From positions 231,832 to 295,831 of the IMG/VR virus record IMGVR_UViG_3300023179_004209: a DNA stretch of 64,000 bases; one strand, 5' to 3'. The translations under genes and the position numbers were made by a program. Below, piece after piece: positions 9,294 through 59,645 of the stretch. This DNA is from a virus (lineage: Duplodnaviria; Heunggongvirae; Uroviricota; Caudoviricetes). The notes beneath the pieces were generated by a model. It was given only the letters and a program-made list of their open reading frames with translations. It was not told the DNA's origin and ran no database searches. The stretch's first letter is position 1; each line of letters begins with the position of its first letter.

Positions 9294-9558
9294 AGTTAAG
9301 AATATTAAGATTCCCAAATGTTTTCCGTATAAGGACTATACTTGTAAAGTTGATCGCCATAAATTTCACGCTAATTTATTTGAAGATAATGGTGGAGAGT
9401 TATCTGCAAAGATTGGTAGAGAGTTATATCTTGTCAAAGAAAATGGTAAATTGGAAGATTGGATTGATGAGGCTATGGAGATGAGTGATTTTTATCATAA
9501 TCTGGTTGACTTTCTAAAAGAAGTAAAGTATATTCATAACCAAGAGAAAAATGACTAA
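9283..9558 (+). CDS. hypothetical protein
   Basis: ORF. Confidence 0.5.
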   Translation: MKIKVKNIKIPKCFPYKDYTCKVDRHKFHANLFEDNGGELSAKIGRELYLVKENGKLEDWIDEAMEMSDFYHNLVDFLKEVKYIHNQEKND

Positions 9559-9913
9559 CGAAGAAATCAATAAAATTATTGCTGAATTTCGTGGGTGGGT
9601 GGAATATCATCCAACTCCAGAAAGCATATCCAAAGGATATCCTAGTTATTCTTATTGGACACCTCCGAGGGATTCAAAACAATTTGCTGAAAACTGGGGT
9701 AAATTAGAAATGGATTATCCGCCAGATTATTGTAATGATTTGAATGCAATGCATGACGCAGAAAATACACTAAATGATGATCAACAATATGAGTATGCTT
9801 ATGTGCTTGATGATTTGATTAAAAATCGTTCTTGTGAATTTGATTTGATTCACGCTTCTGCACGAATGCGAGCAGAAACTTTTGTAAGAACAATTAGTAA
9901 ATGGAAAGAATAG
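9551..9913 (+). CDS. hypothetical protein
   Basis: ORF. Confidence 0.5.
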   Translation: MTNEEINKIIAEFRGWVEYHPTPESISKGYPSYSYWTPPRDSKQFAENWGKLEMDYPPDYCNDLNAMHDAENTLNDDQQYEYAYVLDDLIKNRSCEFDLIHASARMRAETFVRTISKWKE

Positions 9914-10041: not shown

Positions 10042-10064
10042 CCCCTAGGATAAAGCCATAGGGG
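10042..10064. repeat. IS end hairpin CCCCTAGG-ATAAAG-CCATAGGGG (right end, overlaps tnpB stop)
   Basis: 8-bp stem with A bulge; near-identical copy at 11323-11345. Confidence 0.6.
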
Positions 10065-23604: not shown

Positions 23605-23688
23605 ATTTATAGGGGGGGAGGGGTACCCCCAATAAATAAATAATAAAAAATTAATTGGTTAGATTGTTTGCTTATATTTATAAGCAAT

Positions 23689-24033
23689 ATGACTAAAGAA
23701 CAATTAAAATCATTGATTAGAGAATGTGTTTGCGAAATCCAACAATCATTGGAAGAAAAGAAACAAAAGAAAAAGGAAGCTCCTAAAGCACCAGAACCAA
23801 AAGCTGCAGCAAAACCAGCTCCAGTAAAGAAATTGGTAAAGAAACCAGTTAAAAAGAATTTGGCAAAGGTAGCACCACCAAAGGATAAATTGACCACATT
23901 TGACGCAGTTCAATTGGCAAGAAGAGCAGCTGATGCAGAAAAGAGAGGCAACAAACAAGCTGCTAAGGATTTGAACTTGGCTAAGCAAGCAGCTAACTAT
24001 ATGTTAAAGACTGGTAAGACCAAGGTAGATTAA
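23689..24033 (+). CDS. histone-H1-like Lys/Ala/Pro-rich DNA-binding protein with propeptide-like N-terminus MTKEQLKSLIRE
   Basis: KAPEPKAAAKPAPVKKLVKKPVKK low-complexity basic region; start adjusted to ATG after TATATTTATA. Confidence 0.55.
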   Translation: MTKEQLKSLIRECVCEIQQSLEEKKQKKKEAPKAPEPKAAAKPAPVKKLVKKPVKKNLAKVAPPKDKLTTFDAVQLARRAADAEKRGNKQAAKDLNLAKQAANYMLKTGKTKVD

Positions 24034-24057
24034 TTTCGTTTATATTCATATTGTTTA

Positions 24058-24089
24058 CCGCTTAGATTTAAAAGTCTAAGCGGTTTTTT
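24058..24089 (+). terminator. Rho-independent terminator
   Basis: CCGCTTAGA..TCTAAGCGG + TTTTTT. Confidence 0.7.
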
Positions 24090-24215
24090 ATTATTTATAA
24101 TAAGTCCTGTTTTTATTACTATATTTATATAAACTAAAAATTGACATTGTTCTGTTTCCATAATTTGTTATTAATTTTAATTGTCAATAAATGTAACAAT
24201 AAAAGGAAATAAATT

Positions 24216-25991
24216 ATGGCAATCAATATTTTTACACATATACGTAGAGGTTTATATGATAATGTTTACAATTGTATAGAAAAAGAAAAGGTGGATGTCA
24301 ATCAAAGAGATGATGACACTGGCAATCCACCACTGGTTGTTGCGGTAGAAGAAAACCAAATAGAAATAGTCAGATTACTATTAAACCACGGTGCTGATGC
24401 CAATTGTAAAGATTGGACCAGTAAAAATACCGCATTGGATGTAGCTGAACAAAAAGGTTTCAAAAATATTGCAGAAGTATTACAACAAAGAGGTGCAAAA
24501 TACAGTAGTGGTAGTAGTTTCCATTTAGCTGCAAAGAATGGTGATATCGTTTCTATCGAAGAAATGTTGAATAAAGGATGTGATATCAATGAAGTTGACG
24601 CAGGTAAAGGTTGGACTGCTCTACATTACGCTGTTAATTATGGACAAAAACACTTGGTTGAATATTTGATTATAAGAGGTGCAGATGTCAACAAGAAAGA
24701 TTTCTTGGGTAAAAACAATCCTATTGATGTATTATCCAACACCAATAGAGGTGAAATTGTTAAATTATTGAATAAATACGGTGCTAAATCCGCAGGTGGT
24801 GTTAGTATTCATTTCTGCGCAGAAACTGGTGATTTTGAAGGTGTACAATCATTCTTTGATAAAGATGGTAAAGTTAATGGTAGAGATGAAAAGAATGGAT
24901 GGATGCCATTACATTATGCCGTTAACGCTAACGATGTTGATATGGTGGAGTTTTTGGTACATTTGGGAGCAAATGTTAACGGTGCAGATTTTAAAGGTGA
25001 AATTGCTCCGTTAGACATTGCATTCAAGACTGGGAATGTAGAAATGCAAACATATCTACAATCCAAAGGTGCGCAAAGAAAGAAGAAACATGATACTGGT
25101 GGTGGTGGCAAAGATGTAACCATCTATATTACAGAAGAAGTCAAGAAACAAATTGCAATGTTTATTGAAAAGCGTGAAAAAGAAGAAGCTGCAATAAAGA
25201 AACATGAAGAAGAACAAACTGCAAAAGAACCTAAAAAGAAAGATGCACCAGCTAAGAAAATTAACTGGAAAGATTTCTTGAAACTTAAAGATATTCCAGT
25301 TGTAGAAAAGAAAGAAGAAAAGAAGGTAGAAGTGGTTAAACCCGTCAAACAAATTGTCAAGAAAGTTGAACAAGTTGATATAGAAGTTAAATCCAGTAGA
25401 TTACAATTGGATGTTGAACAAGAAGGTTACATATTCTTCATGGACATTGTTGCTTATAGTAAGAAAACAACTGATGAACAAAAGAAAGCTTGTAAAGATT
25501 TGGGTGCATTGGTTAAGTCTACAATGCAATATAAAACCGCTAATGCTCTTGAAAAGTTAATTATATTACCTACTGGTGACGGTATGGTATTGGGATTCTT
25601 TACTTATTTGGAAGATGCAATGAATTGTGCTATTGCTATAGCTAAAGCAGTAAAGGATAGACCAGATTTACAAATGAGAATGGGTGTACATTGTGGATCA
25701 GTAATTCCAATGGAAGACATCAATGGTAATCTTAACATTAGTGGTGACGGTATTAATTATGCTCAAAGAGTAATGGATGCGGGTGAAAGTAATCATTTAT
25801 TGGTTAGTTCAGCAGTAATGTTAAAGTATGACCGACCACCATATGTTTTGGTAAACGATCTGGGAGATGTAGTTGTAAAACATGGTGTAGTGATGCATTT
25901 GTATAGTTTACATGGTAGTGACTTTGGCAATAAAGCATTTCCATCTAGTAGAGTGAAGAAGGCAGAACCTACTGATTCAATCAAAAAATAG
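24216..25991 (+). CDS. ankyrin-repeat protein fused to class III nucleotidyl cyclase homology domain
   Basis: about 8 ANK repeats (GADANCKD, TALHYAV, PLHYAV...). K/E-rich linker. CHD motifs FFMDIVAYS, PTGDGMV, MRMGVHCGSV, SGDGINYAQRV. Confidence 0.65.
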   Translation: MAINIFTHIRRGLYDNVYNCIEKEKVDVNQRDDDTGNPPLVVAVEENQIEIVRLLLNHGADANCKDWTSKNTALDVAEQKGFKNIAEVLQQRGAKYSSGSSFHLAAKNGDIVSIEEMLNKGCDINEVDAGKGWTALHYAVNYGQKHLVEYLIIRGADVNKKDFLGKNNPIDVLSNTNRGEIVKLLNKYGAKSAGGVSIHFCAETGDFEGVQSFFDKDGKVNGRDEKNGWMPLHYAVNANDVDMVEFLVHLGANVNGADFKGEIAPLDIAFKTGNVEMQTYLQSKGAQRKKKHDTGGGGKDVTIYITEEVKKQIAMFIEKREKEEAAIKKHEEEQTAKEPKKKDAPAKKINWKDFLKLKDIPVVEKKEEKKVEVVKPVKQIVKKVEQVDIEVKSSRLQLDVEQEGYIFFMDIVAYSKKTTDEQKKACKDLGALVKSTMQYKTANALEKLIILPTGDGMVLGFFTYLEDAMNCAIAIAKAVKDRPDLQMRMGVHCGSVIPMEDINGNLNISGDGINYAQRVMDAGESNHLLVSSAVMLKYDRPPYVLVNDLGDVVVKHGVVMHLYSLHGSDFGNKAFPSSRVKKAEPTDSIKK

Positions 25992-26025
25992 TATATATTA
26001 GTAGATACGGTCATATTTATAATGT

Positions 26026-27453
26026 ATGACCGTATCTGAATTAAAATCATTAATAAAAGAAGTATTACTTGAAGCAGTACCATTTGATAAATCAACTGAT
26101 ATTGAATACGGACTAAAAGCCAAGTATGATGAATTGGGCGATTATACATTTGGTGTAGAATTTGAATTTGAACCTGTTGTAGAAGAACAGAATTTATCAA
26201 TGGATCAAATCATAGAAAAGTTGTCAGAGTTGATGGGATCATCATACCGTTATGATAATGGATTAACTGACGCATATAATTCGTGGGTTGAAGAACAAAG
26301 AAAAGAAGCGGCTTGGAAATGGAACCGATATGGAACCATTGATAATATTGATAGATATGATGAAGAATATGGTCCAATGAGTGTAGATACATTTGATAGT
26401 AGTGTTCCAGAACCAGAAAGAAATGATTTTGATAGTGATGATGAATACAATGAAGCATATGAAAAATATGATGAAGTAAGAAATGAAATAGACAGTGAAT
26501 ATGATCGTTGGGAAAGAAGAAATCGAGGTGATTATGTTGATGAATATTTAAGACTTTTAGCAAGAAGTGGAGAATGGACTGATTTTATTCCAGATAGTGA
26601 AATGACTGTAACTGATATGGAAAATGGTATTGATTCTGCGTATAACTTATTAGATAGTTTGGGTGAAGATGTAAGAAAAGATGATAAACCAGATAAAAAT
26701 ACATGGGCAGTAGGAGAAGACGGACCAAATGTTGAAATAAGAAGCAGACATATGAGACAAACTGGTCATGATTTTAATATTATTTCCAAAGTAGGAAATT
26801 GGGTAAGTGATCAAGCAACACACGGTAAAACTGGGATGCATATTCATATAGGAGTTCCAAGTGATTTTGATATGTTTGATGTATTGGCAATGAGTACATT
26901 GGTTGATGAAAAAGCTATTAAATCTGAAGTAGCCATGGATAGAGATTTTAACAGTTTTGCTAAATTGAGAAGAAGTTTGAGTAACGCAATTTATAACAGA
27001 ATTCATGAATACATGCGTAGACAATCTGAAAATGTACCAAAATCTTTTATTCTTACAAACGCACAAATGAAAGAAATATTATCTGGATTTGATCGTAATC
27101 ATGGTACAAATATTGCAGCATTTAGTGAACATAAAACAATTGAATTTAGATATTTGGGATCTGATATGGCAGATCAAGTATTAAAGTGGATATCTTATTT
27201 CTTGTTGTTACCTCGTATTGCTAAGAGTAGAAATCAGATAAAATTGGATACTATTTATAATGAACAAATAGTAGCTACCAGATTACCAGGCAAGATTAAA
27301 TTTGATTTGTTTAAGACTGATGAACCAAGAACTAGTGTTCCAATGCCAAAAGAACCTGCAGATTTAATCAAACAAAAAGCATTTGAATTACCAAGCAAAT
27401 TGGATATTGCGAAACAACAAGCTGCGGTTAAAAAACAATCGGGAACACAATAA
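26026..27453 (+). CDS. acidic protein with propeptide-like N-terminus MTVSELKSLIKE
   Basis: ORF; D/E-rich first half. Confidence 0.55.
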   Translation: MTVSELKSLIKEVLLEAVPFDKSTDIEYGLKAKYDELGDYTFGVEFEFEPVVEEQNLSMDQIIEKLSELMGSSYRYDNGLTDAYNSWVEEQRKEAAWKWNRYGTIDNIDRYDEEYGPMSVDTFDSSVPEPERNDFDSDDEYNEAYEKYDEVRNEIDSEYDRWERRNRGDYVDEYLRLLARSGEWTDFIPDSEMTVTDMENGIDSAYNLLDSLGEDVRKDDKPDKNTWAVGEDGPNVEIRSRHMRQTGHDFNIISKVGNWVSDQATHGKTGMHIHIGVPSDFDMFDVLAMSTLVDEKAIKSEVAMDRDFNSFAKLRRSLSNAIYNRIHEYMRRQSENVPKSFILTNAQMKEILSGFDRNHGTNIAAFSEHKTIEFRYLGSDMADQVLKWISYFLLLPRIAKSRNQIKLDTIYNEQIVATRLPGKIKFDLFKTDEPRTSVPMPKEPADLIKQKAFELPSKLDIAKQQAAVKKQSGTQ

Positions 27454-27472
27454 TTCTTATATTTATAACAAT

Positions 27473-28936
27473 ATGACATTGTTTGAACATATTTTGATTG
27501 AAGGTAGAGTGGATGATTTTAAGAATTTATTAAAAAATAAGTTCAGCATTGATTATGTTCAAAAGATTATCAATAGAGATACCAGCAAAAACCATAAGAA
27601 TTTGTTATGGATTGGTAAGATACTAAAAACAGAACCAGATATCAATGAAGAAGATTTGTTTAAAAATCTGGAAATATTCAACAAAGTAGCATCATCCACT
27701 GATTTGTATAGTTTTAAAGAGTATAGTACATTTTTGAGTTTCTTACAAAAGAAAAGTAAAGAAGTACAAATGGGTAAGATGGCTCAAATCAAAGCTGGTT
27801 CACGTACAATTAAAGATGATAAAAGATGGTTGGTAGTTGCACCAGAAACACATGATGCAAGTAGATATTTTGGTGGTGGTACCAGCTGGTGTATCAGTAC
27901 AAGCAATGATAGATACTGGAAAGATTATTATTATGCACAAACCATAGTAATGATTAAAGATAGAAGTAAGAAACCAGACAATGACTTGTTCAAAGTTGCC
28001 ATTGTTGGTAATGCCTATGAACAACTTTGGGATACTAGTTTTAGTGATAAGATAGATAAAATCAGAGAATTATCAAAACATGTAGATTTATATAATGTCA
28101 ATGACAATAAATTAAGTGGTGACCAAAAAATTAATTATTTAGGACAATTACCAGAAGATTTAATTGAAGACTTGATGAATTATTTTAATGATGATGATGT
28201 CTATGAAAGACAAACCAATCATTATTATGAACTTGCAAGAGAAAGATATGATGAAGGTGGTAAAGAAGAACTTTTGAAATCATTGTTTAATACTACGGTA
28301 GCGTATTTTGATGCGGATGTTGATTTTCATGCAGATGATTTTGGTGATTTAATGAGCAGACAATTTGCAGATGAAATTCAAGACGGTAATTGGGATGAAT
28401 TTTTAAGTGAACTATGGGGTGCATGTATAACTTATCAAGGTGTAGAGGATGATTCTTTTTATGCTGAAGTAAATACAAGAAATTTCAAAAACTTGATAAG
28501 TGATACCAGTTATGATTTAAATACCTATCTTGATTTAGCCAAAGAAGTATTGAAAAATGAGGATATATCAAATATGGATAACATCATAAAAGATGCGTTG
28601 ATTAAAACATCTGATAATGGTGATCCATATACTGTAATTAAAAGACAAGCAAATCAATTAAAAGATACAAATTATAATGATATAATATTATCATCATTAA
28701 ATGCATATAATGCAAAAAATAATCCTACTTTTATTCAAGGTCAGAGATCTTTGGGACCAGAATTTATGGGTATTGTAAATAAATTTAAACCAAAGAACAT
28801 TGAGGATGTAATTAAAGTGTTGAGTATCAATCCTAGAGCAAAGGATATGATTGATCAGATACAAAGATACAGAAGAGATTTGTATGAATCCAAGAAAAAG
28901 CGGACAATTAAATATAGAGATTTTTACAAATTATGA
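27473..28936 (+). CDS. hypothetical protein (N-terminus MTLFEHILIE)
   Basis: start moved to ATG after TATATTTATAACAAT to avoid 70-nt overlap. Confidence 0.5.
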   Translation: MTLFEHILIEGRVDDFKNLLKNKFSIDYVQKIINRDTSKNHKNLLWIGKILKTEPDINEEDLFKNLEIFNKVASSTDLYSFKEYSTFLSFLQKKSKEVQMGKMAQIKAGSRTIKDDKRWLVVAPETHDASRYFGGGTSWCISTSNDRYWKDYYYAQTIVMIKDRSKKPDNDLFKVAIVGNAYEQLWDTSFSDKIDKIRELSKHVDLYNVNDNKLSGDQKINYLGQLPEDLIEDLMNYFNDDDVYERQTNHYYELARERYDEGGKEELLKSLFNTTVAYFDADVDFHADDFGDLMSRQFADEIQDGNWDEFLSELWGACITYQGVEDDSFYAEVNTRNFKNLISDTSYDLNTYLDLAKEVLKNEDISNMDNIIKDALIKTSDNGDPYTVIKRQANQLKDTNYNDIILSSLNAYNAKNNPTFIQGQRSLGPEFMGIVNKFKPKNIEDVIKVLSINPRAKDMIDQIQRYRRDLYESKKKRTIKYRDFYKL

Positions 28937-30751: not shown

Positions 30752-30776
30752 TTATATTCATAATATTTATACAGAT

Positions 30777-32114
30777 ATGGATAAGAACTTAAAGAATGTA
30801 ATTTTAAAATTGGTCGAAGAAGTAATGACTGAAGCTCCTGCACCAGTTATTGAACCACCAACCAAACCAGCAGAAAGACCACCTGCTCCATCCAAGCCAG
30901 ATAAAAGACCCAATCCATTAAAACCAACAAAACCTGGCATTGCACCAAGACCAAAGGCTTTAAGTCACGATGTACAAGCATTCTTAAATCAAAGAAAGGG
31001 TTTAACTGAAAAAATTGATACGGGTGAGGATATACCAGATTTTATTGATCCAAGCAAAAGAGCCAAAATTGAAAATGAAAAGGACTATGTAGAACAAATT
31101 CTACCAGATTTAGGTCCAGAAGCAGATAGATATTTAGAAATTATTACCAGTGAAAGTTATCAACAAAATGTAAAAAGAGTAGCTTACTATCTTGGTATTA
31201 GTGTAGGTGAAATTCAATCCAAGTTTCCAAACTATCCAACAATGGTTATGTTGGCATTTAAAACACTAAATGATATCAAAAGAGCAGAATCTAGTTTAAA
31301 GAAACAATTAGAACAAATTGCAGTAGATGTAGTATTAGATTTACCAGAAAATAAGTTTATTAAACAATTAGTAGAAGATGGTGACATTATCGTTGATGCC
31401 AAATTAGGCAATGCTGACTTAACAAAAGCAGTTACCGCAGACAAAATGGATGAAGAAATGGATAATGGTCTAACAGTTGCAGAAAATCTTAATATGCAAC
31501 TGAACACTATGTTGAGTGGTGACACTGATGGTAAATTAAGAAGAACATTGGCTAACTATATGACACAAGGTGATGCAGTAAATAAATTATTCTTATTTAA
31601 TACTGTTTCAGATAAGTTAGATACAATGAGTCCAAATCTATCAAAAAAATACGGTGTATTAGCCGCAATTACACAAATAGGATATTATTTAACGCCGGAT
31701 TTTCCAATTACAAGTGATATCGTAAATATGGCTGCTGTAGGCAGTGAACAAGTGGTTCCAACTGGTGATAAATATACAATCAAAGCCAGAGCAATGACAT
31801 TTCCTTATCTAGTACATGAATTGGTAAAAGGAATTGGTGATTATATCAGTATGGATGTTGCTTCACAAGAAGAATTGGATACTGAAACAATGGACGATGA
31901 AATCAAACAGATTATGGCAGGTCCAGCATTGGAAATGAAGTTGAGAAAGTTGATTCCAGCCGATAAAATTGAATATTTGCCTATAATCAAGAAACTATTT
32001 TATAAGTTGCCAATTGAAACCATCAAGGATATATTACTTGGAGGTATGAAAGCTCAATCTTTCATGAACGGTTTGATAAAACAAGCCGAAGAAAGCATGG
32101 AAGATGTAGATTAA
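30777..32114 (+). CDS. protein with propeptide-like N-terminus (MDKNLKNVILKLVEE) and Pro-rich linker
   Basis: ORF; PAPVIEPPTKPAERPPAPSKPDKRPNPLKPTKPGIAPRPK. Confidence 0.55.
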   Translation: MDKNLKNVILKLVEEVMTEAPAPVIEPPTKPAERPPAPSKPDKRPNPLKPTKPGIAPRPKALSHDVQAFLNQRKGLTEKIDTGEDIPDFIDPSKRAKIENEKDYVEQILPDLGPEADRYLEIITSESYQQNVKRVAYYLGISVGEIQSKFPNYPTMVMLAFKTLNDIKRAESSLKKQLEQIAVDVVLDLPENKFIKQLVEDGDIIVDAKLGNADLTKAVTADKMDEEMDNGLTVAENLNMQLNTMLSGDTDGKLRRTLANYMTQGDAVNKLFLFNTVSDKLDTMSPNLSKKYGVLAAITQIGYYLTPDFPITSDIVNMAAVGSEQVVPTGDKYTIKARAMTFPYLVHELVKGIGDYISMDVASQEELDTETMDDEIKQIMAGPALEMKLRKLIPADKIEYLPIIKKLFYKLPIETIKDILLGGMKAQSFMNGLIKQAEESMEDVD

Positions 32115-32119: not shown

Positions 32120-32419
32120 ATGAAATTCAATCATCAATATTTGGGATATGAATCAGAAGAACAAAGAGATTTATATTCTTGTAATATATTAGATGATTAT
32201 GGAGTTCATGTTGGGTTTTGTAAGTATTATAAACCGTTGTTAGAGTTTGAAACGGTTTATATTGAATTCATTAATATAACTTATGAACACCGTAGAAGAG
32301 GTCATGCAACCGCAATGGTTAAAGAACTTCAACGAATGTATTATTTGAAATGGGATGGTAGATTAAGTGTAGACGGTAGGAAGTGGTATAATTCATTGAT
32401 GGAAAGACAAATAGTATAA
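32120..32419 (+). CDS. small GNAT-like acetyltransferase (tentative)
   Basis: HRRRGHATAMVKEL resembles GNAT motif A. Confidence 0.35.
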   Translation: MKFNHQYLGYESEEQRDLYSCNILDDYGVHVGFCKYYKPLLEFETVYIEFINITYEHRRRGHATAMVKELQRMYYLKWDGRLSVDGRKWYNSLMERQIV

Positions 32420-32431
32420 TATTTATACTAC

Positions 32432-35349: not shown

Positions 35350-35380
35350 TAATAAATTTCAAACTAATATTTATAAACAT

Positions 35381-36334
35381 ATGAAACAACTATTGACAGA
35401 AGCCAATCTAACAAATTTTTCAGAATTACTAACTGCCATTAACAAAGTATTGGACAACAAAGACATTCCACAATTTGCTGGTAGTGAAACCAATAAAGTA
35501 AGAGATTGGTTTGTAAAACAATATGTAAAAGCAATCAAAGAAGATGAAGTTGACCTACAATCATCCATCACACCACACAAATATAGTGAAGGTGAACCAG
35601 AATGGATGAATAAATCTGACATCATGGACTTTAGTGGTGAATTACCAGAAGATGTAGTTGATGAAATTGGTCATACAGTAGACTATTTTGCTACACTTGA
35701 CGCAAATGACTTGAGAAAAATCTACAAAGAACCATATAGAGTCATCAAACAAAAGGTACAAGAATGGGACAGAGAATTGGCATCAACATCAACTGATACC
35801 AAGAAGGAAGATAATCTAAAGAAAACCTTAGTCAAGGGTACTGATTATAAGATTATCAAGGAAGTATCTGGATTAAAGTGGGTAAAACTACTTACACCAA
35901 AATCAAAAGATGTTGAAGGTGATGTAATGGGACATTGTGTAGGTGGTGAAGGTTATGAAAACAGAGACATTTATTCATTATGGGATAATAGAGATAGATC
36001 TCATGTGACTATTGAAGCTGATGATAACAGAAAGACTATTCAACAAATCAAGGGTAAACAAAATAGAGAACCAGTTGAAAAATATCAACCAGCTTGTGTT
36101 GAATTCGTGGCTAATGCAATGTTGCAAGGATACAGAGTACAAGGTGACGGTGAAAACATTGGTATGATCAAACATAACAGTGAATATCACTTTGATGAAT
36201 TAAATGTATTACCAGAAAAATTCAGAAACAAAGAAATATTTAGAACTTGGGTAGATAAAATTTTCCCAACTGAAATATTCCCTAAACAACAAAAAGCTAT
36301 TGCTGATATTGCAAAAAGAATTGTTGAAGTATAA
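35381..36334 (+). CDS. hypothetical protein (N-terminus MKQLLTE)
   Basis: start moved to ATG after TAATATTTATAAACAT. Confidence 0.5.
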   Translation: MKQLLTEANLTNFSELLTAINKVLDNKDIPQFAGSETNKVRDWFVKQYVKAIKEDEVDLQSSITPHKYSEGEPEWMNKSDIMDFSGELPEDVVDEIGHTVDYFATLDANDLRKIYKEPYRVIKQKVQEWDRELASTSTDTKKEDNLKKTLVKGTDYKIIKEVSGLKWVKLLTPKSKDVEGDVMGHCVGGEGYENRDIYSLWDNRDRSHVTIEADDNRKTIQQIKGKQNREPVEKYQPACVEFVANAMLQGYRVQGDGENIGMIKHNSEYHFDELNVLPEKFRNKEIFRTWVDKIFPTEIFPKQQKAIADIAKRIVEV

Positions 36335-36759: not shown

Positions 36760-36791
36760 TTTAATAATAAATCTATCATATTTATATCTAT

Positions 36792-37640
36792 ATGATTAAA
36801 TTGATAGATTTACTAAATGAAACGCCTATAGGTACATATACAACCATAGGTGACTTTGAAAAAGGTGCATCATATAAAGATCCAAGAGATAGAGCATCTG
36901 TTAGTCATCCAGTAACAGTACAAAAAGTCAAGGATATGTTGAAAAATACAATTGTTGACTTTGATTTTTACTTTGTTAACAAGCCTGGATTAAGACAATT
37001 TAGTGAAAAAGGTAAAGTACCATATGAATTCATTTTCAAACCAGTTCCAGAAGGTTTAGGATTGACACACGAAGAATTGGGTGATAGAAGTATAAACAGT
37101 GATAATATCACTGTATTCTTTGTAAGTAATACCGCTGCGGATAAAATTCCAATGACTGCGTGGACTATTGTTCATAGAGTTGGTCACGCAATGAATAGAA
37201 CACCACAGTTTCAAGAATATACAAACTGGTTGGATAAACAATTTGATGAATTACTTGCTTTGTATGGTAAACAAAAAGTAAATACCAGATATAGTTTTGG
37301 TGATAATGATTATAAAAGATCAAGAGTTTATGATTTAGCTAAGGGTAGATTATTCAATCATATAGGTACAATGCGTAGTGCTAGAGAAGGTAGAATACAT
37401 CTTAGACCATATGAATTTTACTATGAATTGTTTGTACAATATTTGAAAGACGGTGAAATTAAATTCAATCCATTGACCAAAAACATTTTGGTTGGTTATG
37501 GACCATATGGTAGTAAAAGTATTGCTTATACACAAAATTTAGCTGACGCACAAGAACATTTAAATATGATTGCAAATACAATACCATATTATGTTGAAGA
37601 TGTATTGAGAGCGAATGCTGGTGATATATTTGTAATGTAA
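36792..37640 (+). CDS. protein with N-terminal decapeptide MIKLIDLLNE (propeptide candidate 1)
   Basis: ORF; shares only the first 10 aa with the next three genes. Confidence 0.6.
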   Translation: MIKLIDLLNETPIGTYTTIGDFEKGASYKDPRDRASVSHPVTVQKVKDMLKNTIVDFDFYFVNKPGLRQFSEKGKVPYEFIFKPVPEGLGLTHEELGDRSINSDNITVFFVSNTAADKIPMTAWTIVHRVGHAMNRTPQFQEYTNWLDKQFDELLALYGKQKVNTRYSFGDNDYKRSRVYDLAKGRLFNHIGTMRSAREGRIHLRPYEFYYELFVQYLKDGEIKFNPLTKNILVGYGPYGSKSIAYTQNLADAQEHLNMIANTIPYYVEDVLRANAGDIFVM

Positions 37641-37641
37641 T

Positions 37642-37983
37642 ATGATTAAATTGATTGACATATTATTTGAAAATAAGGGTAACTATGTTTATCATTTGAC
37701 TAAGTTATCTAATTTAGACAGTATTAAAAAACACGGATTAAGACCTGCTATACCTGTCGATATGGATACTGAAGAAGAAGGTGTTTATTTATTTAAAACT
37801 GAAGAAGATGCGGAAGATGCATTACAAAATTGGTATGGTGATAGATACGATGATACAGAAGAGTTTGCAATATTGACCATAAAGACAGATGGTTTGAGAT
37901 TATTTTCAACATTAGCAGACTATGAATATGTTTCTTATGAAACAATACCGTCGTCAAATATAGTTAATATGGAAAAAATATGA
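37642..37983 (+). CDS. protein with N-terminal MIKLIDILFE (propeptide candidate 2)
   Basis: ORF. Confidence 0.6.
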   Translation: MIKLIDILFENKGNYVYHLTKLSNLDSIKKHGLRPAIPVDMDTEEEGVYLFKTEEDAEDALQNWYGDRYDDTEEFAILTIKTDGLRLFSTLADYEYVSYETIPSSNIVNMEKI

Positions 37984-38519
37984 TTAAACTCAAAGACATA
38001 TTGAAAGAGACAATCAATGATAGTATTGATTATGGATATCATTATACCAGCAAGAAAAATTATGAAAAGATAAAGACTGAAGGGTTGAAAATAAATCAGT
38101 CTATGCATATGACACTCAGAAATAATGAATGGATGTTAGATGCTTATGGTAAGATTCCTATATTTTTGGGTACAAAACCTCTTACACAATATGGTCCAAG
38201 AATACCAGTAGGTAGTGAATATGATTGGGTTTTATTAAAAGTAGATGTAAATGGTCTTGATATTTCTGCGGATATTGGTACAATGATTGACTTTGGTGCA
38301 TATATTGAAAAGGATGGTTTTTGGTTCAAACAAAAACCTTTTTGGTTAAATGATACTGAATTTAATTATGATGATTTGCAAGGCAGTGATAAATTGGATT
38401 TATATAAAGTAATAAGACAAACAAAATCGTTTGTAGTATTAGAAGATATAAGTTTGGATAGAATAAAACAGATAGATTATAAAGGAAAACTTTCAATCAA
38501 AAACTTTTTTAATATATAA
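37980..38519 (+). CDS. protein with N-terminal MIKLKDILKE (propeptide candidate 3)
   Basis: ORF. Confidence 0.6.
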   Translation: MIKLKDILKETINDSIDYGYHYTSKKNYEKIKTEGLKINQSMHMTLRNNEWMLDAYGKIPIFLGTKPLTQYGPRIPVGSEYDWVLLKVDVNGLDISADIGTMIDFGAYIEKDGFWFKQKPFWLNDTEFNYDDLQGSDKLDLYKVIRQTKSFVVLEDISLDRIKQIDYKGKLSIKNFFNI

Positions 38520-39019
38520 TGATTAAATTATCTCAATTAATAAATGAATTAAAATTGACAAATGATATGCGTATTCATATGTCAAAGAATCCATTTGAAT
38601 TGGAACAAAGAACATTCAAACAAAACATTGGAATGAAACCATTTGGATTTTGGTATGGTTTTGGTAGTGAATGGATTGACTGGACACGAAGTGAAGTGCC
38701 GGATTGGGTTGGTAAATACATTTATAGTGTTGATATTGGAAATTCCAATGTATTACAGATAAATACCCATATGGAATTGATGCAATTTAACCGTGAATAT
38801 CAATCCAATATAAGTGGTATTGGACATAGAAGACTAGAAGGTGAAGTAATTGACTGGAAAAAAGTTGCTGATAAGTATGATGGTATAGAAATCAATCCAT
38901 ATCAATTTGAAGCTAGATATCAATATTTATGGTATTATGGTTGGGATATTGCAAGTGGGTGTATATGGAATTTAAAGAATGTTAAACTAAAGTTGTTAAC
39001 TGATAAAGGAATAGAATGA
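38519..39019 (+). CDS. protein with N-terminal MIKLSQLINE (propeptide candidate 4)
   Basis: ORF. Confidence 0.6.
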   Translation: MIKLSQLINELKLTNDMRIHMSKNPFELEQRTFKQNIGMKPFGFWYGFGSEWIDWTRSEVPDWVGKYIYSVDIGNSNVLQINTHMELMQFNREYQSNISGIGHRRLEGEVIDWKKVADKYDGIEINPYQFEARYQYLWYYGWDIASGCIWNLKNVKLKLLTDKGIE

Positions 39020-39537
39020 ACTTGATTACAGAAAATAGACACAGTGAATTTGGTTGTTTAATGGCTATAGTTGAACCAACCAGAGGACCACACATCATTA
39101 AATTTGGTAAAACAATAGTACCACCACAAATTCTTTATACTGATCCAAATGATAGTAGCTATGGTTATGATGATGAACCACACATTACAGCTAAGTATGG
39201 TTATTCTCCTGACTTAACAAGAGCTAATTTAGCCACCATTCTACAAGGTATCAAACCATTTATTGTTAAACTTACTGGTTTAACCCAATTTCAAAATGAA
39301 AAGTATGATGTAGTCAAGTTTGATGTAGAAAAGAATGAGATATTATCTGAAATAAGACGAAGATGCGATTGTTATAAGAATGAGGATAAATACCCAGATT
39401 ACAAACCACATATGACATTGGCTTATGTACAAAAAGGTAAGTTTCCTCATATTAAAGAAGGATTAAACATATCTGTACCAGTCACCAGATTCAAATATAG
39501 TGGTCAAGACGGTAAAAAATTATACATCAATTTGTAA
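39016..39537 (+). CDS. 2H phosphoesterase superfamily protein (LigT / cyclic phosphodiesterase-like)
   Basis: two H-x-T-x motifs (EPHITAKY and KPHMTLAY) about 85 aa apart. Confidence 0.6.
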   Translation: MNLITENRHSEFGCLMAIVEPTRGPHIIKFGKTIVPPQILYTDPNDSSYGYDDEPHITAKYGYSPDLTRANLATILQGIKPFIVKLTGLTQFQNEKYDVVKFDVEKNEILSEIRRRCDCYKNEDKYPDYKPHMTLAYVQKGKFPHIKEGLNISVPVTRFKYSGQDGKKLYINL

Positions 39538-39586
39538 TATATAAAAAGTGCTCGTTTTAATTATAAAAAGTATATTTATAATTACT

Positions 39587-40929: not shown

Positions 40930-41571
40930 ATGTTAAAATCATTATTATCACTACTATTAACTACAACAATATTTGCAGCGGAATTTGAATCGGTAAATTA
41001 TTATACAAAGAATTACCTATTTGACGCTCAAATATATTCTGTCAATACTTTCGTATCCGAAAACACACTTAGCCATCAACTAGGTGATTTTACGCCGCAT
41101 CTTGACTATGTACAATACCAAGGTTTGGATAAATATAAAGAAAGTGACTTTGGATTTGGTAGTGAATATAAACTAACAGATAAACTAAATTTGGATGTAG
41201 GTAGTTGGTATTACTATTATTACAGTGCAGGTGACCATTATTTTGAACCATACGCATCATTAACTTATGATTGGATAGTATCACCAACATTATATTTTAG
41301 TATGATAACATACAATAATACACCTAGAGCAACAATAAGCTTTGATTATAACAAAGATTTTAATGAAAAGCTGCATTTGAATGTAAGACCAGTGATTGGT
41401 ACTGCAGACTATGATGTAAGATATGGTTATTATGGTATAGTATTTGGTTTGGATTACAATGTAAATAAGAATTTTACATTGTTTACTGTTACAGAAGTTG
41501 ATAAACCTTTTAGTTCACCTGACGATAGTATCGTATACACTTATTCATTTGGAATCAAATTATCCCTATGA
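40930..41571 (+). CDS. secreted Tyr-rich beta-rich protein (possible outer-membrane protein)
   Basis: signal peptide MLKSLLSLLLTTTIFAA; alternating aromatic pattern. Confidence 0.5.
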   Translation: MLKSLLSLLLTTTIFAAEFESVNYYTKNYLFDAQIYSVNTFVSENTLSHQLGDFTPHLDYVQYQGLDKYKESDFGFGSEYKLTDKLNLDVGSWYYYYYSAGDHYFEPYASLTYDWIVSPTLYFSMITYNNTPRATISFDYNKDFNEKLHLNVRPVIGTADYDVRYGYYGIVFGLDYNVNKNFTLFTVTEVDKPFSSPDDSIVYTYSFGIKLSL

Positions 41572-51776: not shown

Positions 51777-52172
51777 ATGGATGCTGATATAAAGAAAGAA
51801 TTTATGACATTGTTACCCGAATTATTTGCGGTAATAAAGAATAAATTGAATTTGCAAACAACCCCTAAGATAATCTTGAAAAAAGATCAAGACAATTCAA
51901 ACAATATCTTGGGTAAAACTGCTTACTACAATCCAGCAGACAAAAGTATTACTTTATTCATTCTAGATCGTCATCCAAAAGATATACTTAGATCATTTGC
52001 ACATGAATGTGTTCATTTGTATCAACATGAAAACAATATGTATGGTATTGGTGAAAATGAATCTGGTGATACTCATTATGCTCAAAATGATACTGAATTG
52101 AGAAAAGCTGAAAAACAAGCATATCTCCTTGGAAATATGATGTTTCGTGATTGGGAAGACAGTAAGAAGTAA
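51777..52172 (+). CDS. HExxH-motif protein (putative small metallopeptidase-like)
   Basis: FAHECVHLYQH. Confidence 0.35.
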   Translation: MDADIKKEFMTLLPELFAVIKNKLNLQTTPKIILKKDQDNSNNILGKTAYYNPADKSITLFILDRHPKDILRSFAHECVHLYQHENNMYGIGENESGDTHYAQNDTELRKAEKQAYLLGNMMFRDWEDSKK

Positions 52173-57161: not shown

Positions 57162-58283
57162 ATGAGTAAACTACTTAATGAAACATTTCAAAAACATTTA
57201 GGACTTCTTAAAAAGAAACTTAATGAAGCAGGTCAATATGAATTACCTTTAAGTGGTGATACACAGTCAACTAATGATCTTAGTTCTGAAGTCAAGGATG
57301 AGTTTTGGAATAATTTTCAAAAGATGTCAGTTAAAGATTTCGTAGATAAATATGGAAAAAAATTTTCAGATCCTAAATTTCATGCATTTATAAGTGCAGG
57401 ATTGGGTGATAAAATAAATGATGAAGGTTTTGAAGTAACACAAGTTTCGCCATTGGTTACCACATTATCACCTACACAGAGGGAAATTGGATTTGGTAAT
57501 AGTTTAAATGATTTGATAAAAGCAACATACAATGAAAGTGTTCAATTAGAAGAACTTGATAATATGTTAAAAGGCAAAAATGTCAAATTAAAAGCAAAAA
57601 CAGGTGAAGTACCAATAGTAATTTTTAATAATAAATATATAATAGATGGACATCATAGATGGAGTAAAATTTATTGTGCTAACAAAACCGCAACAGTATT
57701 TTGTTTGAATTTTGAATGTCCGGCTTTAAAAAATGATCCTTCAATGGCATTAAAAGCGTTTCATTTAGCAATTGCTAAAATGTTAAAAAATTCTCCAACT
57801 GAAAATAAATCCGGTAAAAATTTATTTGAATCAAATAGAAATGAAGTATATCAATATATTTATGAAATATTAGTTTTACCACATAACAAAGCATTTTTAG
57901 ATGTATACAAAAAACATAGTAATCTTATAAATCCAAACTTAAATGAAGCGGAACAACTAGATTTGATTGATCCAGAAACAACATTAAATTCAAAAACATT
58001 GAAGTATGTAGATCCATTTGCAAAAACAGTTTCATTGTATATTTCTGATAATGCTGCAGCTTTAATAGGTAATAGTAAGCCTGCTACTGATACACCAAGA
58101 AGTCATATGCCTCAAACTGATAAAGCACCAGGATATGAAGATGCATTAGAAAAAGGTGAAATTAATTTCTTACCTGATAAAGTTACTGAAAAAATGGTCA
58201 ATGAAACATTTCAAAGACATTTGACTCTTCTTCACAAGAAGTTGAATTTAAATGAAAATGTAGACATCAATAACATACAATAA
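57162..58283 (+). CDS. protein with N-terminal MSKLLNETFQKHLGLLKKKLNE motif repeated near its own C-terminus
   Basis: ORF; C-terminal KMVNETFQRHLTLLHKKLNLNE. Confidence 0.55.
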   Translation: MSKLLNETFQKHLGLLKKKLNEAGQYELPLSGDTQSTNDLSSEVKDEFWNNFQKMSVKDFVDKYGKKFSDPKFHAFISAGLGDKINDEGFEVTQVSPLVTTLSPTQREIGFGNSLNDLIKATYNESVQLEELDNMLKGKNVKLKAKTGEVPIVIFNNKYIIDGHHRWSKIYCANKTATVFCLNFECPALKNDPSMALKAFHLAIAKMLKNSPTENKSGKNLFESNRNEVYQYIYEILVLPHNKAFLDVYKKHSNLINPNLNEAEQLDLIDPETTLNSKTLKYVDPFAKTVSLYISDNAAALIGNSKPATDTPRSHMPQTDKAPGYEDALEKGEINFLPDKVTEKMVNETFQRHLTLLHKKLNLNENVDINNIQ

Positions 58284-58386: not shown

Positions 58387-59181
58387 ATGAGTGATAAACT
58401 AAACGAAACATTTCAAAAGCATCTTAAATTGCTTCACGAACACTTAAATATAAATGAAGCATATGGTGACCCTGCGCATCTTGATTGGGCTATGAGAGAT
58501 CCAGGTGAAAGACCTGATTGGGATCCTGATGGACTAACAGGAATAAAACAACCATCATCATATAGACCTGCACGAAATTACGATCCCGAAGAAGAAAAAA
58601 GAAATCAATTCAATAAAACTGTAGCAGGTGTTGCTAGAAATATGGGAGTTAACGGTTATGATTTAGTAAGATATTTAAATCAAATTAAACAAGACGGTAA
58701 AAAAGATTGGGAAACAACGGATGAATTAAATCCAGATAAGGATAGACAAATTTACGGACACGATAATTTTGACAAAGCTGCGTTTAAAAGATGGTTAGAG
58801 AGAGATAAAGAAGAATCAGAAAGAAATTATAAAGCCCGACAAGAAAAAGATAAACTAGAAGCACCATCCAGAGAAATTAATTCTGCAGCTGAAGCTATTA
58901 GTTCAGATATGACTCAGTTAATACATAGTATAGGTTTAATTAAATGGCAAGTATTTAAATTAAAAAGTTACGAAGGAAAACTTAAGTATTTAAGTGATCA
59001 TTTTGAAAAAAATGAAGATAAACTAAAAAATGATACATTCAAATACACAAGCGGCTATGAAGATCTTAAACCATACTTTGATAAGTATTCTGAAAACGAT
59101 CAAAAAGCTAAACTTATATTACTCGCAGCAATTAAAAAGAGTGAAAAATCATGGGCTGCTAGAGGATTTTTTGAACAATAA
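58387..59181 (+). CDS. protein with N-terminal MSDKLNETFQKHLKLLHEHLN motif
   Basis: ORF. Confidence 0.55.
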   Translation: MSDKLNETFQKHLKLLHEHLNINEAYGDPAHLDWAMRDPGERPDWDPDGLTGIKQPSSYRPARNYDPEEEKRNQFNKTVAGVARNMGVNGYDLVRYLNQIKQDGKKDWETTDELNPDKDRQIYGHDNFDKAAFKRWLERDKEESERNYKARQEKDKLEAPSREINSAAEAISSDMTQLIHSIGLIKWQVFKLKSYEGKLKYLSDHFEKNEDKLKNDTFKYTSGYEDLKPYFDKYSENDQKAKLILLAAIKKSEKSWAARGFFEQ

Positions 59182-59232: not shown

Positions 59233-59258
59233 TATTTTAAGTGGATATTTATATTGAT

Positions 59259-59645
59259 ATGACCAAGACACAATTGAAACAATTGATAAAAGAGTGTTTA
59301 AATGAAATTGATTTTGCACCTGGTTTTAGACCAACACATGATTTAACCATAGTTTCAACTGTTACTGGTAGTGATGTAGATGATTTAAAAACTTATATAT
59401 TAGAATTACATAGAGTTTTAAAAGCTAATTTTGGTAATGATGTACAGTTTGAAGAAAAATTAAAAATGTCTATGTTGTCAAACGGAGATAAAAAAATTGA
59501 AACCACATTCACTATTATTGATATAATTGATGATTTAATGTCAAAAACAGTAAGAGAAAATCTACAATATATACATGAACAATTAACAATGTGGTCAATA
59601 AATCAAGATTTAGTAATAGACTTTACTTTCAAGATTAAAAAATAG
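59259..59645 (+). CDS. protein with propeptide-like N-terminus MTKTQLKQLIKE
   Basis: start adjusted to ATG after TATTTATATTGAT. Confidence 0.5.
   Translation: MTKTQLKQLIKECLNEIDFAPGFRPTHDLTIVSTVTGSDVDDLKTYILELHRVLKANFGNDVQFEEKLKMSMLSNGDKKIETTFTIIDIIDDLMSKTVRENLQYIHEQLTMWSINQDLVIDFTFKIKK

Follow-up and report, generated by a model that had tools for sequence, protein, structure and literature searches.

Why proteins with no other detectable similarity should begin with almost the same dozen residues is the question raised by this locus. The window, i.e., the whole stretch of 64,000 nucleotides analysed here, belongs to an AT-rich freshwater phage that is abundant, uncultured and equipped with T4-type head machinery; its lineage is represented by contigs of up to 273-305 kb and its host group is probably Bacteroidota. 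Three of its genes, named here by their first nucleotide (23689, 26026 and 59259), encode the start M-T-x-x-(Q/E)-L-K-x-L-I-(K/R)-E (family B), and the coordinates and translations reported for them in the first-pass annotation were confirmed, together with the similar starts of 27473, 30777 and 35381 (Table 1). In all-against-all BLASTP, the three proteins were 56-71% identical over residues 1-16/17 and not at all past that point, and because the similarity is confined to these residues they are not paralogs. The reading preferred here, at a probability of about 0.73, is that the shared 12-residue N-termini are capsid targeting propeptides of the T4 style, which would load unrelated proteins into the assembling head and would then be cleaved off by the head protease.

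Table 1. Leader-bearing genes and promoter-like motifs of the window
Positions	Strand	Feature	N-terminus	Promoter-like motif
9551..9913	+	120-aa protein; lower-confidence candidate outside the 23.6-39.6 kb cluster	MTNEEINKIIAE	none
23674..23682	+	promoter-like ATATTTATA; ATG of 23689 6 nt downstream
23689..24033	+	114-aa protein	MTKEQLKSLIRE, residues 1-12 (23689-23724)	23674..23682
26013..26021	+	promoter-like ATATTTATA; ATG of 26026 4 nt downstream
26026..27453	+	475-aa protein; Amidoligase_2 domain at C-terminus (Pfam)	MTVSELKSLIKE (to E12) and VLLE extension (to E16; 26026-26073)	26013..26021
27473..28936	+	487-aa protein	MTLFEHILIE (10 residues)	5 nt 5'
30777..32114	+	445-aa protein	MDKNLKNVILKLVEE, then Pro-rich linker	5 nt 5'
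35381..36334	+	317-aa PcfJ-like protein	MKQLLTE (short)	5 nt 5'
36792..39537	+	family A operon, five overlapping genes	MIKLIDLLNE (282 aa), MIKLIDILFE (113 aa), MIKLKDILKE (179 aa), MIKLSQLINE (166 aa), MNLITE (173 aa, 2H phosphoesterase)	single (36778-36786)
51777..52172	+	131-aa protein; lower-confidence candidate	MDADIKKEFMTLLPE	upstream
57162..58283	+	373-aa ParB-like nuclease (ParBc_2)	MSKLLNE, then TFQKHL	upstream
58387..59181	+	264-aa protein; dialect as in 57162	MSDKLNE, then TFQKHL
59245..59253	+	promoter-like ATATTTATA; ATG of 59259 5 nt downstream; terminator-like GTGGGGTTTTTT precedes motif
59259..59645	+	128-aa acidic protein	MTKTQLKQLIKE; second site CLNE at residue 16	59245..59253

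The leaders of the family A operon (MIKLxDLLxE) and those of family B (MTKxQLKxLIxE) are built on a common register, Phi(-6)-x-x-Phi(-3)-Phi(-2)-x-E(0), family B being family A displaced by two residues, and the T4 capsid targeting sequence (CTS; MKTYQEFIAE) and the gp21 cleavage motif (L/I)-x-E conform to it too. In T4, gp21 cuts after L/I-x-E, the first 10 residues of IPIII are enough for packaging, and targeting depends on residues 4 and 7, processing on residues 8 and 10 (PMC9026906; PMC12991175). The leader of 27473 has exactly the T4 register (F4, I7, L8, E10), and that of 35381 is comparable to MELITE of T4 Alt. In relatives, the same leaders were found on further unrelated proteins, and the orthologs of 30777 carry MAKNLKSSLVKLIKE. 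The third-position GC of the leader codons ranges from 0.17 to 1.0, the peptide being retained across genomes of 29-59% GC, and the leader appears to be conserved by selection at the protein level.

A scan of the N-termini of the window ORFs with the regular expression [LIVMF][LI]xE (Glu at position 6-15) revealed an enrichment. The expression matched 16/118 ORFs, whereas in the interior of these proteins 2.5% of 15-residue windows matched (binomial p = 6e-8), and 15/113 ORFs (13%) versus 67 of the 1,712 ORF N-termini from 80 unrelated IMG/VR loci (3.9%; Fisher p = 9e-5). The expression is not specific, and the control rates predict about four chance matches in the window. Within the cluster at 23.6-39.6 kb, nine of 20 ORFs matched (45%; p = 4e-8). 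The same expression recovers T4 IPII/IPIII (MKTYQEFIAE), gp24 (MAKINELLRE), gp22 (MLKEQLIAE), gp21, gp68 and Alt (MELITE), with known gp21 substrates making up about half of the 19/262 T4 ORFs that it flags. Chance may account for single leader assignments, above all for those of small ORFs away from the cluster.

The window cargo genes have no detectable homologs among GenBank phages. The 166-aa protein of the family A operon aligns with its actinophage homologs, in which the first ~19 residues are missing, from about residue 20 only, and the LNETFQ(K/R)HL motif at the N-terminus of 57162 is repeated at its C-terminus. The low-confidence AF2 model of 59259 has a helix at residues 3-15 that is followed by an alpha/beta domain, the linker between them (18-25) being poorly predicted. 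The match of 51777 to MPTase-PolyVal is weak and sub-threshold. In 23689, CVCE at residue 16 is a possible second site, and the putative mature part is basic (pI 10.0, net charge +16) and rich in Lys, Ala and Pro (37%, 19% and 19% of residues 24-66). The description "histone H1-like" refers to composition only, and the protein has no family match in Pfam, NCBIfam or PHROG. An internal DNA-binding head protein, for which 23689 is a candidate, is plausible; T4 IPI-III are also small and basic. The analogy with adenovirus protein VII adds nothing.

The family of 26026 allows the leader to be followed in diverged proteins. Its orthologs (90-91% identity) stand directly after the gene of the Gp23 capsid protein on the relatives' contigs L277 and L340, in the latter in the order Gp23, 26026 ortholog (91%) and 27473 ortholog (93%), and two genes past it on L234, while on L260 a 68% homolog directly follows Gp23. 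Among 102 diverged homologs, all full-length representatives of the family, 87% contain the loose pattern Phi-x-E within the first 20 residues, as against 40% of internal 20-residue windows (p = 5e-23). The leader sequence is variable in these homologs, and its end lies directly before the conserved VPF(D/E)K (AVPFDK, the conserved mature start, in 26026); in different phages it is of the A-type, B-type or other dialects, all ending in Phi-x-E before the mature start.

The leaders are also associated with T4-type head genes. In a scan of IMG/VR with a leader-B DNA pattern, which itself enforces the peptide, at least 75 clean ORF starts were found among the matches listed, which are a sample; at least 38 of these starts have homologs of gp17, gp18, gp20, gp21 or gp23 in the same locus of up to 15 kb, versus none of the 80 control loci. 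They recur at the same few places: 70 to 87 nt past the protease gene gp21, between the portal gene gp20 and gp21, or 135 to 262 nt past the capsid gene gp23. The contigs that carry the protease, scaffold and Gp23 genes are those of close relatives, with 91-95% identity in the genes shared, and neither the window nor a contig proven to belong to its genome. L337, whose ankyrin-cyclase gene is 94.7% identical to window gene 24216, encodes Peptidase_S77 (E = 7e-19), a scaffold protein and Gp23 (E = 9e-73), and L344 contains a complete head module, in which three genes ahead of TerL, the gene that follows the protease and the scaffold gene all encode leader-type N-termini; the aligned proteases do not vary at the catalytic residues H85 and S140. 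The earlier idea of a propeptide or targeting module, drawn by analogy with the T4 internal proteins, gains support from the T4 CTS/gp21 register, from the prohead-core-position genes adjoining gp21 homologs in many T4-like contigs, and from the gp21-family protease, scaffold and Gp23 capsid protein of close relatives.

Of the 11 window genes preceded by the promoter-like ATATTTATA motif, nine encode a leader (p = 8.5e-7). In relatives and in the cultured Flavobacterium phage immuto, the motif also precedes the portal, TerL, gp13 and fibre genes, and in relatives neck genes as well. It is found upstream of a DNA ligase gene too, and for this reason the label "late" is not proven.

According to the proposed mechanism, the capsid targeting sequences, i.e., family B MT(K/R)x(E/Q/D)LKxLI(K/R)E, family A MIKLxDLLxE and shorter variants such as MKQLLTE, would each form an amphipathic helix whose hydrophobic residues occupy -6, -3 and -2, counted from a Glu. 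This helix would resemble the N-termini of the proteins that make up the core and scaffold of the phage's prohead, and by this mimicry the attached protein is proposed to co-assemble into the prohead scaffolding core, after which a gp21-family serine protease would cut the (L/I/V)-x-E site behind its Glu and the mature cargo would stay in the head to be ejected together with the DNA. Since the ATATTTATA element also heads late structural genes, the cargo may be made at the time of prohead assembly. The predicted cargo includes the basic DNA-binding polypeptide (23689), the amidoligase-like enzyme (26026), PcfJ-like, 2H-phosphoesterase and ParB-nuclease proteins, and several proteins of unknown fold. 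The motif with its modularity and enrichment, its linkage to T4-type head genes and the protease and scaffold of close relatives are observed, whereas the steps of targeting, cleavage, packaging and ejection and their timing are inferred. If the mechanism holds, the leaders would mark a large number of proteins of this uncultured freshwater T4-like phage as probably injected.

Among the alternatives, it is unlikely that families A and B mark separate targeting or processing routes, with, e.g., different core proteins or proteases, as the first-pass annotation had suggested. Two consensus sequences are recognisable within one genome, and the core-position proteins of the lineage head module were seen with A-type leaders, the B-type being seen on cargo only, so that B leaders could have a somewhat different binding partner. 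However, a single register with the ending Phi-Phi-x-E accommodates both families, the A-, B- and other dialects are swapped between phages within the 26026 cargo family, the head module shows one prohead protease gene only, and T4 gp21 alone processes equally diverse N-termini (IPIII, gp24, gp22, Alt), and the suggestion was not upheld. That the N-terminal helix is a tag for another system, such as a degron for phage ClpP with host ClpX/ClpA, or a capsid-unrelated oligomerisation or regulatory helix, is very improbable: Met-basic-hydrophobic motifs at the N-terminus are known ClpXP signals and a gene for a ClpP homolog (PF00574, E = 3e-30) exists in relatives, but that gene is unlinked to the leader genes, the leader stands on scaffold and core-position proteins adjoining a gp21-family protease in many phage loci in which no ClpP was noted, and its invariant feature is the Glu in the (L/I)-x-E context, i.e., the gp21 specificity.

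It is highly improbable that the motif is a by-product of constraints on translation start in an AT-rich genome, where A-rich unstructured first codons of SD-less or leaderless mRNAs would give N-termini rich in Lys, Glu, Thr, Leu and Ile and lacking any protein-level function. Genomes of 50-59% GC encode the conserved peptide by GC-rich codons, and N-terminal matches amount to just 4.3% in AT-rich control loci; moreover, the hydrophobic register and the terminal Glu before the conserved mature start are fixed in homologs 26-91% identical, and the leader position is tied to the gp21, gp20 and gp23 genes, all against the A/T-rich leader codons of the window, the SD-like element in only 17/118 genes, the G-poor upstream regions and the promoter-like motif abutting the ATG. 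Barely credible is the explanation by recent paralogy or a wrong start codon, for which an in-frame TTG 21 nt 5' of the 23689 ATG might be invoked: the similarity ends at about residue 17, the promoter-like motif precedes the ATG and has the TTG upstream of it, and orthologs from many contigs have the same start Met.

The targeting propeptides preferred here are most similar to the T4 CTS of IPI/IPII/IPIII and Alt, processed by gp21 (Peptidase_S77), in the short N-terminal peptide with hydrophobic -6, -3 and -2 positions ending in (L/I)-x-Glu, in its presence on unrelated, non-essential-looking proteins, in scaffold and core N-termini of the same kind, in the gp21-family protease with conserved His and Ser present in the lineage, and in a cargo, here predicted, of one small basic protein besides host-directed enzymes like Alt. 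The consensus sequences, MT+xELKxLI+E (12 aa; a second site, C(L/V)xE, often follows) and MIKLxDLLxE, differ from MKTYQEFIAE, the predicted set is far larger (at least 12-14 window genes versus four in T4), and, unlike in T4, enzymes of 110-490 aa make up most of this predicted cargo. The grouping of unrelated genes that each begin with a conserved 5' leader likewise recalls the hyperplastic loci of T-even phages, in which diverse internal-protein genes share only a CTS (PMC3012670; PMC9026906); the gene content of the window cluster also varies among close relatives, with collapsed or rearranged versions of it in related contigs. In contrast to the T-even loci, window leader genes each also have their own promoter-like ATATTTATA and occupy several sites (23.7-39.5 kb and 57-59.6 kb; in relatives, beside Gp23 and upstream of TerL).

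The giant phages phiKZ, 201phi2-1 and SPN3US resemble the window phage in the large genome, the predicted processing of head-internal proteins at a Glu motif and the gp21-related protease. They use S/A/G-x-E or A-x-E, and their propeptides are mostly long, whereas the window site is the T4-like (L/I/V)-x-E after a leader of 6-16 residues and the lineage capsid protein is a clear Pfam Gp23. In giant phages, many head-internal proteins are cut after the Glu of a three-residue motif by diverged gp21 homologs (PMC9026906), and SPN3US ejection proteins and prohead-protease cleavage are described in two papers (PMC5694885; PMC10052503). The ParB, 2H phosphoesterase and phosphoribosyltransferase domains are listed for the predicted capsid-packaged "polyvalent" proteins (Iyer et al. 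2017, PMC5512222), whose delivery together with the DNA is predicted, as it is for the window cargo, and the repertoires overlap in ParB-like nuclease, 2H phosphoesterase and phosphoribosyltransferase-like proteins, with an SNF2/Sno helicase nearby; the window domains, however, are separate genes with their own leaders and not one giant fused polypeptide. The closest cultured genomes by capsid protein (49-50% identity) are Microcystis phage Mel-JY01 and Flavobacterium phage vB_FspM_immuto (Immutovirus), both smaller (160-190 kb) than the window lineage contigs. The latter has the same head-gene order as the window lineage, TATTTATA before late genes, and leader-type N-termini on gp080 (MKKSQLRQIIKE), gp079, gp078, gp077, gp076, gp072 and the scaffold (MSNKDLLKQAIAE).

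Leaders, i.e., short N-terminal peptides, of two families were found in the window: family A, MIKLxDLLxE, and the 12-residue family B, M-T-x-x-(Q/E)-L-K-x-L-I-(K/R)-E, with several shorter variants (see the table; window genes are named by start coordinate). The three family-B N-termini of 23689, 26026 and 59259 reported in the first-pass annotation were reproduced on translation, residues 9-12 being LIRE once and LIKE twice, while residues 7-10 in family A read LLNE, ILFE, ILKE and LINE. A second C(V/L)xE site is present at residue 16 in 23689 and in 59259. The test motif, N-terminal [LIVMF][LI]xE with the Glu at position 6-15, was present in 16 of the 118 window ORFs, whereas internal windows of these proteins had it at a rate of 2.5% (p = 6e-8); in the cluster at 23.6-39.6 kb, 9 of the 20 ORFs had it (p = 4e-8). 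The control rate was 3.9% among 1,712 ORF N-termini from 80 unrelated IMG/VR loci, brought in by a promiscuous HNH/endonuclease VII-like query, and 4.3% in the AT-rich subset of these loci. Single short leader matches can arise by chance, and about four of those in the window are expected to have done so, probably in small ORFs outside the cluster.

Common descent of the family-B proteins and ordinary secretion were considered as explanations of the shared N-termini. In the all-against-all BLASTP of twelve candidate proteins, the similarity of 23689, 26026 and 59259 was confined to residues 1-16/17, with none beyond, which rules out paralogy and therefore indicates a short N-terminal module on unrelated proteins; such a portable leader was found on otherwise unrelated proteins both in the window and in the relatives. 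A Sec/Tat or lipoprotein signal peptide, for which a hydrophobic h-region of at least about 10 residues after a basic n-region was taken as the criterion, was rejected because the leaders, amphipathic and charged (e.g., MTKEQLKSLIRE), have no hydrophobic core, and the true lipoprotein signals of the window differ in look, such as that of 39587 (MSKFLSLIVFSLFLIGC).

The T4 prohead protease gp21 (Peptidase_S77) cuts C-terminal to the Glu of L/I-x-E, residues 1-10 of IPIII are enough for encapsidation, and residues 4 and 7 of the T4 capsid targeting sequence (CTS) serve targeting, residues 8 and 10 processing (PMC9026906; PMC12991175). The same regex, run on T4 as a positive control, recovered IPII and IPIII (MKTYQEFIAE), gp24 (MAKINELLRE) and gp22 (MLKEQLIAE), as well as gp21 (MNEPQLLIE), gp68 and Alt (MELITE). 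Family A and 27473 (MTLFEHILIE) match the T4 arrangement exactly in the sequence-level comparison, with hydrophobics at 4 (L/F), 7 (L/I) and 8 and the Glu at 10, while in family B the hydrophobics stand at 6, 9 and 10 (L6, L9) and the Glu at 12, the pattern being shifted by two. Since the spacing is the same, both families are dialects of Phi-x-x-Phi-Phi-x-E, where Phi is a hydrophobic residue, and the earlier suggestion that two leader classes mean two routes found no support in this single register. The idea of a propeptide or targeting peptide and the analogy with T4, on the other hand, are now backed by several independent lines of sequence evidence. The leaders are best filed, judging from their sequences, under the known T4 CTS/gp21 system, and the phage as an uncultured T4-like one, probably infecting Bacteroidota, with an unusually large predicted cargo set, i.e., proteins bearing the leader, whose packaging and cleavage are predicted. 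No description of the leader consensus sequences or of metagenome-wide CTS use was found in the literature searched.

Collection scans and homolog searches walking outward from the window reached no head genes; the walk in the relatives gave rml genes, a ClpP gene and a tail-fibre module of ~50 kb, and showed ~70 kb to be inverted as compared with this phage. The head module was reached by the leader-pattern scan and then by protease look-up. A 9-kb locus of a close relative (L337; L-numbers denote IMG/VR contig loci of relatives) carries an ortholog of window gene 24216 (94.7%) together with genes for Peptidase_S77 (E = 7e-19; 68.6 bits, where the cutoff is 27), a Gp23 capsid protein (E = 9e-73), a scaffold and a 143-aa protein whose N-termini read MSDLLKE and MKLKHLLE, respectively, and a 130-aa protein with a B-type leader. 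The protease look-up yielded the complete head module of L344, with a full-length protease of 201 aa at 10001-10606, in the order of three leader-bearing proteins (MISLTDLLLE, MIKFGNILTKIINE, MKNYTQLLWE), TerL, Portal_T4, two proteins, Peptidase_S77, the MKLKHLLE protein, the scaffold and Gp23, with MIRLTDLIE, MKFIDLLTE and gp13 further on. MKNYTQLLWE, 5' of TerL, is strikingly near the T4 CTS MKTYQEFIAE. In L340, Gp23 is followed by the orthologs of 26026 (91%), 27473 (93%) and other window genes; a 26026 homolog lies directly 3' of the capsid gene in L277 (91%) and L260 (68%), and two genes separate them in L234.

The lineage therefore encodes a gp21-family protease, its gene being observed on the loci of close relatives, outside the window. 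The catalytic His85 and Ser140 of gp21 (defined in PMC12991175) are invariant in the alignment of T4, cyanophage S-RIM12, two environmental homologs and the lineage protease. The prohead core/scaffold proteins themselves have leader-type starts (scaffold MSDLLKE/..., post-protease protein MKLKHLLE/...), and the scaffold and the capsid N-terminal region are dense in (L/I/V/M)-x-E sites, as gp22 and gp23 are in T4. ClpP, a homolog of which the relatives encode, was rejected as the leader-processing protease, being unlinked to head or leader genes, while the head module holds the gp21-family enzyme.

The association with head genes was also found in the metagenomes. A degenerate DNA pattern for M-T-x-x-[QEDH]-[L/F]-K-x-[L/F]-I-x-E matched at least 117 IMG/VR loci; among the matches listed, 75 were clean ORF starts, and 38 of these 75 stood in a locus of at most 15 kb with T4-type head genes, counted as homologs of T4 or cyanophage gp17, gp18, gp20, gp21 and gp23, which were absent from all 80 control loci. 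The leader-B gene follows the gp21 homolog directly, at +70 to +87 nt, in at least 7 contigs (proteins of 98-151 aa) and, among the matches listed, lies between portal and protease in more than 10 contigs, sometimes as two in tandem, an interval that holds gp67 and gp68 in T4; the third recurring position among these matches is directly 3' of the Gp23 capsid gene. Altogether, at least 20 T4-like contigs have leader B on genes in the gp22 and gp67/68 positions. Among the matches listed, the peptide is kept while the GC content of the contigs ranges from 29 to 59% and the third-position GC of its codons from 0.17 to 1.0, and therefore selection acts on the peptide and not on the nucleotide sequence.

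Features of the window and of relatives' loci (L-numbers), with their positions and particulars
Feature	Position	Strand	Particulars
Family-B gene	23689-24033		N-terminus MTKEQLKSLIRE...
Family-B gene	26026-27453		N-terminus MTVSELKSLIKE...
Family-B gene	59259-59645		N-terminus MTKTQLKQLIKE...
Family A, four tandem genes	36792-39019		MIKLIDLLNE, MIKLIDILFE, MIKLKDILKE, MIKLSQLINE
Shorter leader variant	35381		MKQLLTE
Shorter leader variant; 2H phosphoesterase, last gene of family-A operon	39016-39537		MNLITE; 2_5_RNA_ligase2, E = 3e-10
Shorter leader variant; ParBc_2 (ParB-like) nuclease	57162-58283		MSKLLNE; N-terminal LNETFQ(K/R)HLxLLxKKLN repeated near C-terminus, residues ~346-365
Copies of ATATTTATA	23674-23682, 26013-26021, 27459-27467, 30763-30771, 32419-32427, 35367-35375, 36778-36786, 39572-39580, 51765-51773, 57148-57156, 59245-59253		
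Adenylate/guanylate cyclase catalytic domains	24216-25991, 41568-43007		Neither with recognisable leader
Four tandem paralogs, ~225-255 aa	32432-35349		Leucine-rich-repeat-like periodicity (...N.LTSL.G.P...)
Eight tRNA genes	45531-48990		Arg-tct, Lys-ttt, Glu-ttc, Met-cat, Ile-tat x2, Leu-caa, Leu-taa
IS-type transposase	10045-11184	-	phrog_506, E = 1e-41
ClpP homolog of relatives	L016:338-937, L223/L224:10001-10600		PF00574, E = 3e-30
MKNYTQLLWE protein of relative	L344:2661-3875

The predicted mature part of 23689 has a pI of 10.0, as compared with 9.0-9.7 for the T4 internal proteins, and a net charge of +16, residues 24-66 being 37% Lys. Its earlier description as histone-like holds for the basic, Lys/Ala/Pro-rich composition, which resembles an H1 tail; membership among histone H1 or H1-like nucleoid proteins was rejected, as Pfam, PHROG and NCBIfam gave no match that would point to a linker-histone globular domain or to homology with H1-like bacterial proteins, and therefore the term describes composition. 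A DNA-associated internal protein is a reasonable guess. Pfam domains were assigned to 26026 (Amidoligase_2) and 35381 (PcfJ), and the 2H phosphoesterase matched Acb1, an anti-CBASS nuclease, weakly and below threshold. The repeated motif of the ParB-like nuclease 57162 suggests propeptides at both ends, which recalls the double-ended processing of T4 Alt (PMC9026906). The cargo proteins had no match in PDB sequence searches or NCBIfam, and the AF2 single-sequence models were unusable for 37980 (pLDDT 30) and weak for 59259 (pLDDT 64).

The full HMMER scan with 26026 gave one representative for each of 140 clusters at 50% identity, with such varied N-termini as MIKLKNILQE, MISLKKLLE, MILLRDLLPE, MTIDELKQFVKQTLDE and MNFKSFLE. 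Phi-x-E occurs in the first 20 residues of 87% of the 102 full-length homologs against 40% of internal windows (p = 5e-23), the commonest Glu position being residue 10, and in most homologs, typically those with (V/I)(V/I)PF(D/E)K, the leader Phi-x-E immediately precedes that start. The alignment places the possible cut in the window protein after E16 (VLLE/AVPF), E12, or both.

The promoter-like motif ATATTTATA stands 3-6 nt 5' of the start codons of eleven window genes, nine of which carry a leader (p = 8.5e-7), the genes of 36792-39537 forming one operon behind a single copy. In the relatives, the word TATTTATA within it also stands 5' of gp13, fibre operons and the post-protease gene; Flavobacterium phage immuto has it before several genes, TerL and the portal gene among them. 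These positions suggest a candidate late promoter of the T4-like clade, although the motif also occurs 5' of a ligase gene. Identity with the T4 late promoter was rejected: TATTTATA is only the reverse complement of T4's TATAAATA, not the same word, so that the late-promoter reading rests on position before structural genes. Because the element abuts the ATG, late mRNAs would be leaderless or near-leaderless. A Shine-Dalgarno-like 4-mer was present in no more than 17 of the 118 window genes, G is depleted upstream of the genes, and T occupies position -1 in 74% of them. This is a Bacteroidota-like signature of translation initiation, in agreement with the closest cultured capsid homologs, those of Flavobacterium phage immuto and Rhodothermus phage RM378.

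The window has ~32% GC and nearly all transcription on the plus strand, and no close relative was found among GenBank phages by megablast and tblastn with window genes. Among cultured phages, the nearest capsid proteins are those of Microcystis phage Mel-JY01 (50%) and of Flavobacterium phage immuto (49%), and the host is plausibly a member of the Bacteroidota. Freshwater metagenomes contain the lineage in great abundance, its longest contigs measuring 273-305 kb. The T4-like accessory genes of the window include RNA ligase 1, dCMP deaminase and a polynucleotide kinase-like gene, while RNA ligase 2, DNA ligase, thymidylate synthase and rIIA are found in addition in the flanks and relatives. 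Several of the tRNA genes are unusually long (84-93 nt). The transposase is among the few minus-strand genes, and other assemblies of the phage break nearby. One cyclase is fused to ankyrin repeats; the other protein has a hydrophobic N-terminal half with probable membrane segments (cyclase domain E = 6e-27). The four tandem paralogs matched no Pfam family, and the first has the promoter-like motif upstream. The ~70 kb segment inverted between this phage and several relatives (L002, L016 and L216 against the window end) extends from a SpoU methylase gene through the ~50 kb module with >20 tail-fibre-like genes, and a four-gene 'virion structural protein' cassette (phrog_1645) also occurs in both orientations. 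The ClpP homolog adjoins T5orf172/HNH genes and a SNF2 helicase, unlinked to the head module.

We give a probability of about 0.45, slightly short of even, to the leader being a 'loading signal' that can be read from the sequence and is used, in phage-specific dialects, throughout a T4-like clade that is very large and mostly uncultured; the protease family has >6,000 close variants in public metagenomes. If so, the capsid-delivered effector complement would be predictable from sequence alone, and in this phage a dozen or more enzymes would be injected with the DNA, far beyond T4's documented set, including the amidoligase, ParB nuclease, 2H phosphoesterase and PcfJ-like proteins. The 2H phosphoesterase may degrade cyclic-nucleotide immune signals. 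Capsid-borne proteins act before phage gene expression and are leading candidates for a part in host takeover and first-strike counter-defence, though seldom predictable from sequence. Were the leaders genuine CTS, injected proteins could be found in thousands of uncultured T4-like phages by a simple N-terminal rule, Phi-x-x-Phi-Phi-x-E within ~16 residues, resembling the N-termini of the phage's own scaffold/core proteins and often behind a late-promoter-like element. Flavobacterium phage immuto is cultured and has the same features, which makes the prediction testable.

The domain types of the cargo overlap with those of the polyvalent proteins, likewise predicted to be capsid-packaged (PMC5512222); however, the latter are defined by two to fifteen effector domains fused per polypeptide (Iyer et al. 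2017, PMC5512222), and with at most one recognisable domain per cargo gene the resemblance is functional and membership was rejected. The finding also connects to bacterial CBASS, which senses the I/L-x-E protease activity of gp21 (PMC12991175), and it extends the conjecture of the T4 review literature that T4-like phages use the CTS generally (PMC9026906).
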